A DNA stretch of 64,000 bases, taken from the sequence record OK076929.1. One strand, written 5' to 3'. Position 1 is the first letter of the stretch; each line of letters begins with the position of its first letter. Below the pieces are notes generated by a model that searched no databases, was not told where the DNA came from, and saw only the letters and a program-made list of their open reading frames with translations. The stretch comes from Escherichia phage vB_EcoM_C2-3. Below, in pieces: positions 245 to 1,262 of the stretch. The position numbers and the translations under genes are program-made.

Positions 245-317
245 TGGGAATTAGCCAAGTTGGTAAGGCACTGGATTTTGATTCCAGGATGCAAAGGTTC
301 GAGTCCTTTATTCCCAG
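245..317 (+). tRNA. tRNA-Gln (anticodon UUG)
   Basis: Cloverleaf by eye: acceptor tgggaat/attccca, anticodon loop ttTTGat, T-arm ggttcgagtcc. Confidence 0.8.
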
Positions 318-318
318 C

Positions 319-405
319 GCGAGAATGGCCAAATTGGTAAAGGCACAGCACTTAAAATGCTGCGGAATGATTTCCTTGTGGGTTCGAGTCCCACTTCTCG
401 CACCA
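319..405 (+). tRNA. tRNA-Leu (anticodon UAA), type II with long variable arm
   Basis: Acceptor gcgagaa/ttctcgc, anticodon loop ctTAAaa, long variable arm, T-arm ggttcgagtcc, encoded CCA. Confidence 0.8.
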
Positions 406-410
406 AATTT

Positions 411-484
411 GCGGATATCGTATAATGGTATTACCTCAGACTTCCAATCTGATGATGTGAGTTCGATTCTCATTATCCGCTCCA
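411..484 (+). tRNA. tRNA-Gly (anticodon UCC)
   Basis: Acceptor gcggata/tatccgc, anticodon loop ctTCCaa, T-arm gttcgattc, encoded CCA. Confidence 0.8.
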
Positions 485-494
485 ATTTAATTTA

Positions 495-568
495 CTCCGT
501 GTAGCTCAGTTTGGTAGAGCGTCTGCTTTGGGAGCAGAATGTCGTAGGTTCAAATCCTGCCACGGAGA
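495..568 (+). tRNA. tRNA-Pro (anticodon UGG)
   Basis: Acceptor ctccgtg/cacggag, anticodon loop ttTGGga, T-arm ggttcaaatcc. Confidence 0.8.
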
Positions 569-570
569 CT

Positions 571-660
571 GGAGGCGTGGCAGAGTGGTTTAATGCACCG
601 GTCTTGAAAACCGGCAGTCGCTCCGGCGACTCATAGGTTCAAATCCTATCGCCTCCGCCA
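571..660 (+). tRNA. tRNA-Ser (anticodon UGA), type II
   Basis: Acceptor ggaggcg/cgcctcc, anticodon loop ctTGAaa, long variable arm, encoded CCA. Confidence 0.8.
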
Positions 661-665
661 GTTTT

Positions 666-741
666 GCTGATTTAGCTCAGTAGGTAGAGCAACTCACTTG
701 TAATGAGAAGGTCGGCGGTTCGATTCCGTCAATCAGCACCA
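666..741 (+). tRNA. tRNA-Thr (anticodon UGU)
   Basis: Acceptor gctgatt/aatcagc, anticodon loop ctTGTaa, T-arm ggttcgattcc, encoded CCA. Confidence 0.75.
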
Positions 742-742
742 A

Positions 743-817
743 GGCCCTGTAGCTGGAAGGTTCAAGCAAGCGACTCATAATCGCCAGATGGTGGTTCAAT
801 TCCACCCAGGGCCACCA
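743..817 (+). tRNA. tRNA with CAU anticodon (Ile-lysidine type as in T4, or Met)
   Basis: Acceptor ggccctg/cagggcc, anticodon loop ctCATaa, T-arm ggttcaattcc; identity Ile vs Met not decidable by eye. Confidence 0.7.
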
Positions 818-826
818 AATTAATTT

Positions 827-913
827 GGGGAGTTATCCCGTAGAGGTAGCGGTGTGGACTGTAAATTCATTGTCATTGCGACTCGGGTGGTTCGACTCCA
901 CCACTCCCCACCA
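827..913 (+). tRNA. tRNA-Tyr candidate (anticodon GUA), type II
   Basis: Acceptor ggggagt/actcccc, putative anticodon loop ctGTAaa with G-U containing stem, long variable region, T-arm ggttcgactcc. Confidence 0.5.
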
Positions 914-917
914 ATTT

Positions 918-992
918 GGATGTGTAGCTCAATGGCAGAGCGATCGCCTGTTAAGCGATTGGTTATAGGTTCGAATCCTATCACGTCCGCCA
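918..992 (+). tRNA. tRNA-Asn (anticodon GUU)
   Basis: Acceptor ggatgtg/cacgtcc, anticodon stem atcgc/gcgat with loop ctGTTaa, T-arm ggttcgaatcc. Confidence 0.7.
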
Positions 993-1106
993 AATTTGTG
1001 ACAACTGTCACATTAATATCTACTTGACGCGATTATAGGGGTTGAACTGATCACTCTTCTCTTAATTTCGTGTGAAGACATCTTGATTGTTGGAGTAGGT
1101 ATTAAT

Positions 1107-1182
1107 GTGGCCGTAGTTCAGTTGGTAGAACTCGAGATTGTGATTCTCGTAGTCATGGGTTCGACTCCCATCGGTCACCCCA
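1107..1182 (+). tRNA. tRNA-His (anticodon GUG)
   Basis: Acceptor gtggccg/cggtcac, anticodon stem cgaga/tctcg with loop ttGTGat, T-arm ggttcgactcc. Confidence 0.7.
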
Positions 1183-1186
1183 ATTA

Positions 1187-1262
1187 CGGGGCATAGCTCA
1201 GAAGGAAGAGCAAGGACCTTCTAAGTCCTAGGTCGTAGGTTCGATCCCTACTGCCTCGACCA
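1187..1262 (+). tRNA. tRNA-Arg (anticodon UCU)
   Basis: Acceptor cggggca/tgcctcg, anticodon stem aggac/gtcct with loop ctTCTaa, T-arm ggttcgatccc. Confidence 0.75.

Follow-up and report, generated by a model that had tools for sequence, protein, structure and literature searches.

Why does a T4-type phage carry tRNA genes beyond the eight of T4, and do the additional genes work? The question arises at positions 245–1262 of a 64,000-nt stretch of Escherichia phage vB_EcoM_C2-3 (OK076929.1; this whole stretch is called the window here). An original prediction, made from the sequence by manual folding, had placed there the eight T4 specificities together with candidate tRNA genes for Tyr, Asn, and His. 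The best explanation is that the array belongs to a Tequatrovirus (T2/T4/T6-type) tRNA/stable-RNA operon with a layout common to ~190–260 deposited genomes, serving both codon supply and the replacement of tRNAs cleaved by defence systems. We put the probability of this reading at roughly 85%.

Gene content and relatives of the array

ARAGORN was run on window positions 1–3000 and on the whole 64-kb window, and the calls were compared with the Rfam tRNA family RF00005 (gathering score, 29 bits). Exactly 11 tRNA genes were identified, all on the plus strand within 245–1262, and ARAGORN found no further tRNA in the 64 kb (Table 1). Each of the 11 predicted genes, including those for Tyr, Asn, and His, was reproduced with the predicted coordinates and anticodon, and all eight T4 specificities are present among the anticodons called. 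RF00005 supports 10 of the 11 genes at scores far above chance (59.9–74.1 bits, E values of 1e-12 to 1e-15), the exception being tRNA-Tyr. The original prediction had named 827–913, 918–992, and 1107–1182 as the calls on which it depended; ARAGORN makes all three, and Rfam supports Asn and His and leaves Tyr below its threshold. Together with the GenBank annotations of Tyr discussed below, this half triggers the prediction's own refuting condition for that gene. The predicted 114-nt gap before His is present, and the remaining spacers measure 0–10 nt rather than 1–10 nt. A 3' CCA is encoded in 9 of the 11 genes, tRNA-Gln and tRNA-Pro being without one.

The CAU-anticodon tRNA had been read as tRNA-Ile. 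This is the right reading, since more than 5,400 genomes annotate its top E. coli matches (81.6% over the full 75 nt) as tRNA-Ile. It also carries C4-G69 and C5-G68, which are TilS determinants. Judged by sequence, the CAU tRNA is tRNA-Ile2-like and closer to the host Ile2 than to tRNA-Met. The CAU and Arg genes had both been taken as those known from T4. Their anticodons are the same, but the alleles are those of T2 (100% and 97.4% identity) and only ~61% identical to those of T4. Two other alleles depart from both reference phages. The Gln gene has eight differences from T4 and T2, every one in the anticodon arm, with three compensated stem pairs and U32/U38 where T4 has C32/C38; the Pro gene differs from T4/T2 at 11 positions.

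The cluster has close relatives in public databases. Window positions 150–1700 are 100% identical to Escherichia phage ECML-123-2 (OL631480) and 99.9% identical to G29, HP3, YUEEL01, and others. A total of 1,071 phage records match this segment, 259 of them over at least 80% of its length, and the Tyr-Asn-spacer-His block is present as a unit in 186 records. The record of one relative, G29 (vB_EcoM_G29, MK327940), lists all 11 tRNAs with identical anticodons and spacing. Compared with these deposited Tequatrovirus clusters (G29, YUEEL01, HP3, and ECML-123-2), the window shows no substantive difference; only the annotation of tRNA-Tyr varies, and G29 has an additional, spurious tRNA-Lys. The whole 11-gene cluster is already known, with the same genes in dozens of GenBank records. 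The Tyr and Asn genes, predicted as candidates, are both called here but are not new, having been described in T2L in 2008 (Brok-Volchanskaya et al., PMC2330249) and annotated in deposited genomes.

Table 1. Features of the tRNA/stable-RNA locus, in window coordinates
Feature	Position	Strand	Evidence and remarks
tRNA-Gln(UUG)	245–318	+	ARAGORN; Rfam 67.4 bits; no encoded CCA
tRNA-Leu(UAA)	319–405	+	ARAGORN; Rfam 64 bits; 98.9% identity to T4
tRNA-Gly(UCC)	411–484	+	ARAGORN; Rfam 65.8 bits; 100% identity to T4 and T2
tRNA-Pro(UGG)	495–569	+	ARAGORN; Rfam 69.7 bits; 85.3% identity to T4 and T2; no encoded CCA
tRNA-Ser(UGA)	571–660	+	ARAGORN; Rfam 62.6 bits; 100% identity to T2, 96.7% to T4; CCA encoded as in T2
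tRNA-Thr(UGU)	666–741	+	ARAGORN; Rfam 72.9 bits; 96.1% identity to T4; not in T2
CAU-anticodon tRNA, Ile2 (lysidine) type	743–817	+	ARAGORN; Rfam 59.9 bits; 100% identity to T2, 61% to T4 tRNA-Ile
tRNA-Tyr(GUA), class II	827–913	+	ARAGORN; below Rfam gathering score; non-canonical acceptor/D-stem junction
tRNA-Asn(GUU)	918–992	+	ARAGORN; Rfam 74.1 bits; 100% identity to T2 tRNA-Asn
Structured RNA leader of tRNA-His	993–1106	+	Folding and comparison across phage lineages
tRNA-His(GUG)	1107–1182	+	ARAGORN; Rfam 65.1 bits; C73 and CCA; T at -1 (1106)
tRNA-Arg(UCU), T2 allele	1187–1262	+	ARAGORN; Rfam 66.1 bits; 97.4% identity to T2, 60.8% to T4
116-aa open reading frame	1281–1631	+	Matches the 351-bp open reading frame after tRNA-Arg in T2; hypothetical protein in G29 and T2
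rnaD (species 2 RNA) homologue	1631–1743	+	78.8% identity to T4 rnaD (118 nt)
rnaC (species 1 RNA) homologue	1750–1888	+	99.3% identity to T4 rnaC
Intrinsic-terminator-like hairpin and T run	1939–1972 (hairpin 1939–1962)	+	10-bp stem with 7 GC pairs, followed by TTTTTGG

tRNA-Tyr: working gene or pseudogene

RF00005 does not recover the gene at 827–913 at its gathering score; within the clan the gene scores highest with tRNA-Sec, whose own gathering score of 47 bits it also misses, at 30.9 bits. Two GenBank records flag it as pseudo (as tRNA-OTHER / tRNA-Pseudo in HP3.1 and as tRNA-Val with a pseudo flag in UAB_60), in what looks, from its format, like tRNAscan-style annotation, and the FelixO1 homologue is likewise flagged pseudo. 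These scores and flags, with an invariant C-C mismatch in the standard D-stem register, could be taken to mean that the gene is a decayed pseudogene. We reject that reading as highly improbable. The window gene is identical to the tRNA-Tyr of T6 at 87 of 87 nt, and the T6 tRNA is visible by northern blot and, when overexpressed, rescues T6 from the Septu system PtuAB (Chihara et al. 2026, PMC13096335). PtuAB cuts the variable arm of the host tRNA-Tyr; deletion of the tRNA region sensitises T6, and T4, having no such gene, is unable to escape (PMC13096335). Identity to a gene that is expressed and phenotypically active argues against decay, and by the same identity the window gene would itself rank as an anti-defence tRNA, the T6 gene being the validated anti-Septu case.

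Conservation points the same way. Relatives occur in four unrelated phage families, with 94.8% identity in Vequintavirus, 85.9% in FelixO1, 84.9% in T5, and a further member in Jiaodavirus. The variable and T arms of the T5 gene are the same as those in the window. We aligned 23 distinct family members (alignment A1) and counted changes in paired columns against 500 shuffles; two IMG/VR rows (L041 and L107) were given their missing terminal CCA/CA letters, in columns outside all counted pairs. Double-sided changes were found at 7/7 acceptor, 3/5 anticodon-stem, and 3/5 T-stem pairs, with pairing of 93%–98%, a result equalled by none of the 500 shuffles. The family cloverleaf is 97.6% paired, with 15 pairs altered on both sides. 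Such compensatory stem changes across unrelated families also argue against a pseudogene.

The mismatch itself depends on the register chosen for the D stem. The standard register was rejected: it contains the invariant C-C mismatch, columns 12:25 are paired in 0 of 23 members, and the D helix is only 63% paired. Shifted by one register, the stem reaches 90% pairing, with a CG-to-UA compensation among its pairs. The alignment implies a connector of 3–4 nt from acceptor stem to D stem in the Tyr family, instead of the canonical 2 (positions 8 and 9). This unusual junction, not decay, accounts for the low covariance-model scores and for the pseudo flags in GenBank.

The tRNA has the bacterial tRNA-Tyr identity set, namely GUA (G34, U35), A73, G1-C72, and a long variable arm (identity sets for Tyr and Asn, and the part of the anticodon in histidyl-tRNA synthetase [HisRS] recognition, follow PMC9976931). 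According to the annotation of the T5 record, an anticodon swap makes the T5 tRNA-Tyr an efficient amber suppressor. By analogy, this suppressor and the T6 rescue indirectly support a window tRNA-Tyr that would accept tyrosine and serve in translation. The T5 tRNA-Tyr also counters Retron-Eco7 (PMC11555353).

tRNA-Asn and the PARIS system

The tRNA-Asn gene carries the bacterial identity set G34 U35 U36 A37 with G73, an anticodon loop of CUGUUAA, and a 3' end of ...GUCC-G-CCA. Its anticodon arm reads U36-A-A-G39-C-G41, compared with UAAUCC in the host tRNA, and the UAAU motif is lost. In the PARIS system, host tRNA-Asn is a secondary target of AriB and is cut next to this motif; T5 counters PARIS with its tRNA-Lys/Thr/Asn, to whose rescue effect the Asn tRNA adds (bioRxiv 10.1101/2025.02.04.636281). 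G39 is common to the Asn genes of T5-like and FelixO1-like phages, and the Jiaodavirus and Kanagawavirus genes retain UAAU. By analogy with T5, it is plausible that the window allele resists AriB and would replace the host tRNA under attack by PARIS. The likeness to the T5 anti-defence tRNAs lies in G39 of tRNA-Asn and in tRNA-Tyr (~85% identity, same variable and T arms). The differences are that T5 belongs to an unrelated phage family, that its tRNAs have another genome context, and that the window lacks a tRNA-Lys.

tRNA-His lacks G-1 and follows a structured leader

Position 1106 of the window, the -1 position of tRNA-His, is a T. The phage sequence reads T and then GTGGCCG..., compared with GGTGGCTA... 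in E. coli hisR, and a genome-encoded G-1 pairing with C73 in an 8-bp acceptor stem is absent from the window tRNA-His. Reading G1107 as G-1 was rejected by hand, as the 3' strand then cannot make a 7-bp stem. GUG, C73, and CCA are present, and the first three acceptor pairs match E. coli hisR. The loss is not peculiar to this phage. Among 20 distinct phage tRNA-His genes, spanning four T4-like genera, T5-like and FelixO1-like phages, one mycobacteriophage, and others, T stands at -1 in 18 and A in one, and these 19 retain C73 and CCA; G occurs once, in an unclassified faecal phage (L125). The phage tRNA-His is therefore missing the bacterial HisRS determinant G-1, loss of which reduces E. coli HisRS efficiency more than 100-fold (PMC5499578). 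RNase P requires G-1:C73 to cleave one position upstream of its usual site (PMC5499578). No description of a phage tRNA-His without G-1, or of the flush leader hairpin described next, was found in the literature searched, which excluded most subscription papers and older Russian papers on T5.

The 114 nt that precede the gene are structured. As plus-strand RNA, 993–1106 folds at -32.7 kcal/mol with a z score of -4.36 (0 of 200 shuffles), compared with a z score of -1.81 for the minus strand. The fold consists of a small hairpin (997–1012) and a 13–14-bp closing stem formed by 1012/1013–1025 with 1093–1105/1106, the 3' strand of which runs flush up to the base before His +1. Of 14 distinct phage lineages, 13 have a homologous hairpin 5' of tRNA-His, among them T4-like, T5-like, and FelixO1-like phages; its 10–15-bp helix ends at most 4 nt before +1, and no sequence had more than 7 of its 2,000 shuffles do equally well. 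The stem sequences differ by lineage and still pair, and thus covary. In its minimal form, found in Kanagawavirus and FelixO1-like phages, the leader comprises a hairpin of 31 nt capped by a UACG loop; in the long forms an insert replaces the loop. Such hairpin-His modules are also found in T4-like phages of Klebsiella, Enterobacter, and Pectobacterium. The closest comparison is the Gln-hairpin-His module of Jiaodavirus, Kanagawavirus, and Mosugukvirus, which has the same closing stem and T at -1; the spacer plus His of the window is 88% identical to its form in Klebsiella phage KSKp. That module follows tRNA-Gln, whereas the module in the window follows tRNA-Asn and has the extra hairpin at 997–1012.

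Other identities for the spacer were considered and rejected. Rfam gave no match to 993–1106 at E ≤ 1. Neither ARAGORN nor Rfam returned anything that would indicate a degenerate tRNA, and in blastn the spacer showed no resemblance to the T4 regions of rnaC and rnaD, as a relative of these RNAs would. A promoter is likewise not indicated: 993–1106 has no plus-strand sigma-70 site, and inspection by eye showed none of the T4 promoter motifs, whether early, middle (MotA box), or late. We infer that 993–1106 is linked to tRNA-His as an element for its processing or stability.

Whether this tRNA takes part in translation is less clear. It may be mostly uncharged in E. coli and either act on a tRNA-targeting nuclease, as decoy or competitive inhibitor, or be a neutral passenger of the hairpin-His module. 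This would fit the T at -1, the lack of G-1 in 19 of the 20 phage genes, the low use of His codons by the phage, and the report of tRNA-His fragments as possible minor AriB products (bioRxiv 10.1101/2025.02.04.636281). Selection on the gene itself argues the other way. In the His family, 15 of 21 pairs covary, and GUG, G1-C72, U2-A71, G3-C70, and C73 are strictly kept as in hisR, which suggests that recognition by HisRS still matters. HisRS also reads the anticodon (PMC9976931), and high expression could offset poor kinetics. On balance, we find a non-translational tRNA-His doubtful. For the decoy variant, it also counts that we know of no nuclease specific for tRNA-His.

Unlikelier still, and offered only tentatively, is the broader proposal that these genes form a widespread and apparently undescribed class of phage tRNA-His without G-1. 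Its members, in T4-like, T5-like, and FelixO1-like phages and a mycobacteriophage, keep C73 and an acceptor stem like that of hisR; they would either be matured or charged by a non-canonical route or be largely uncharged, for example as decoys or inhibitors for nucleases of tRNA-targeting defence. The leader hairpin, present in the enterobacterial phages, would then be their dedicated processing or stability element.

Codon demand and host range

Codon counts from 72 open reading frames in the window were compared with a 50-kb E. coli sample. Tyr and Asn codons are used 1.72 and 1.50 times as often as in the sample, with UAU at 2.5 times and AAU at 3.2 times. The codons read by the eight T4-type tRNAs end in A and are enriched 1.4- to 5.6-fold in the phage frames. 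His codons are used at 0.78 times the E. coli frequency, and Lys codons at 2.03 times, yet no tRNA-Lys is present in the array. The predicted link between additional tRNAs and codon usage thus holds for Tyr and Asn and fails for His and for Lys. The predicted link with host range does not hold. The isolation hosts of phages whose clusters are at least 98.9% identical belong to five genera (Escherichia, Salmonella, Yersinia, Proteus, and Pseudomonas), so the tRNA set does not track the host.

These data bear on the view that the additional tRNAs do nothing other than compensate for codon and amino acid usage relative to the host, and would hence follow host range. Enrichment of the Tyr and Asn codons and of those read by all eight T4-type tRNAs is what such compensation predicts. 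It does not predict a tRNA-His at 0.78-fold demand, the lack of a tRNA-Lys at 2.03-fold demand, or the same cluster in phages of five host genera, and T4 thrives without the Tyr, Asn, and His tRNAs. Moreover, the host itself reads the Tyr, Asn, and His codons only with isoacceptors of the GUN type, and hence there is no rare-codon gap to fill. Compensation as the sole cause is possible, though rather improbable; codon supply does explain part of the tRNA set.

Mosaic structure of the array and segB

The array is assembled from blocks with different affinities. Window positions 1–762 are ~95% identical to T4, 743–995 are 99% identical to T2, and 996–1151 are in neither; a ~190-bp segment comprising the spacer and His is not in T2, T4, or T6. 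The layout is Gln Leu Gly Pro Ser Thr Ile, segB, Arg rnaD rnaC in T4; Gln Leu Gly Pro Ser, open reading frame, CAU Tyr Asn Arg, open reading frame in T2; and Gln Leu Gly Thr Ile Tyr, segB in T6. With T4 (NC_000866, eight tRNAs) the window shares the order Gln-Leu-Gly-Pro-Ser-Thr-CAU, the eight anticodons, and the downstream rnaD and rnaC. It differs from T4 in what fills the segB slot (Tyr, Asn, and the leader hairpin with His), in its CAU and Arg alleles, and in an open reading frame between Arg and rnaD. With T2/T2L (AP018813) it shares CAU, Asn, and Ser tRNAs at 100% identity, Tyr at 98.9%, Arg at 97.4%, and the 351-bp open reading frame after Arg. T2 differs in lacking Thr and the hairpin-His module, in having a 402-bp open reading frame between Ser and the CAU tRNA, and in placing Arg directly after Asn. 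The T6 locus has the same tRNA-Tyr over all 87 nt, but there segB adjoins Tyr and drives tandem amplification, whereas in the window Asn follows Tyr and there is no segB.

A search with T4 SegB (tblastn) found nothing within positions 1–2000. Two matches lie far from the cluster, at ~28698–28925 (plus strand; 50% over 76 aa, E = 1e-21) and ~47794–48021 (plus strand; 39% over 85 aa, E = 1e-6; GIY-YIG-type), and on sequence both GIY-YIG regions are presumably other seg-family homing endonuclease genes. In T2L, the tRNA-Asn gene holds the preferred SegB cut site (PMC2330249). The published SegB motif, GTTCGAATC, is present at window position 969, in the T-loop of tRNA-Asn. With segB absent and the preferred SegB target in its Asn gene, the locus should convert to a T4/T6 layout in mixed infection.

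One could therefore ask whether the composition of the cluster stems mainly from homing-endonuclease traffic and recombination among co-infecting T-even phages, rather than from selection for given tRNAs. The block mosaic of T4-like, T2-like, and unassigned segments would be a natural product of such traffic, as would the variants found among phages (Tyr alone, Tyr+Asn, and Tyr+Asn+His), and SegB is known to cut in tRNA genes and to convert the T2L region (PMC2330249). Purifying selection with compensatory change in each tRNA family speaks against it, as does the demonstrated selective benefit of tRNA-Tyr (PMC13096335). Homing accounts for the shuffling of the set and not for the persistence of the genes, and we think it unlikely to be the main cause.

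Downstream stable RNAs and probable terminator

Downstream, the synteny is that of a T4-type operon, the tRNA array being followed by rnaD, rnaC, and a terminator. An additional 116-aa open reading frame sits between tRNA-Arg and rnaD, at a position where T4 has none; it is probably the trna.2 frame of the 2008 T2L paper. A 94-nt tRNA-Lys(ttt) annotated in G29 at 3146–3239 was rejected as a twelfth tRNA, being part of rnaC and a spurious annotation. The hairpin just 3' of rnaC carries a terminator annotation in G29, and the hairpin at 1939 likely closes the tRNA/stable-RNA transcription unit.

Proposed function of the array

As a Tequatrovirus operon, the locus keeps the T4 order, with T2-type alleles of CAU, Tyr, Asn, and Arg; Tyr, Asn, and the inserted hairpin-His module lie where T4 has segB. 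By analogy with T4 biology, the array would be transcribed as one unit ending at the terminator at 1939, and the tRNAs released by host RNase P and 3' trimming. The Tyr and Asn tRNAs would add supply for amino acids that the AT-rich phage uses ~1.5–1.7 times more, and the extra tRNAs would make good the loss of host tRNAs to defence systems that cleave them. A co-infecting phage with segB should overwrite the locus with a T4/T6 layout. Of the two functions, and arguing from the phages in which they were studied, anti-defence replenishment appears better supported than codon supply for Tyr, plausible for Asn, and unsupported for His.

Several points weigh against this explanation. Besides the low Rfam score and the pseudo flags of tRNA-Tyr, Septu also cleaves the T6 tRNA-Tyr, which appears unstable, and protection comes by dosage, aided in T6 by segB-driven amplification (PMC13096335); segB is not adjacent to tRNA-Tyr in the window. 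The link between tRNA-Asn and PARIS is one of analogy only. Absence of G-1, with its cost to HisRS efficiency, and under-representation of His codons make a translational-supply role for tRNA-His doubtful. No promoter was identified, a sigma-70 scan of 1–2400 yielding 7 sites compared with 5.9 ± 2.3 in shuffles.

The Tequatrovirus reading makes two predictions. Phages with the Tyr-Asn-His layout should resist Septu-type cleavage of tRNA-Tyr better than T4, and they should lose the locus to phages with segB in mixed infections. It also means that the pseudo flags placed on the phage tRNA-Tyr family by tRNAscan-style annotation are false negatives. The tRNA-His without G-1, together with the hairpin flush against it, is relevant to the question whether all phage tRNAs serve translation.

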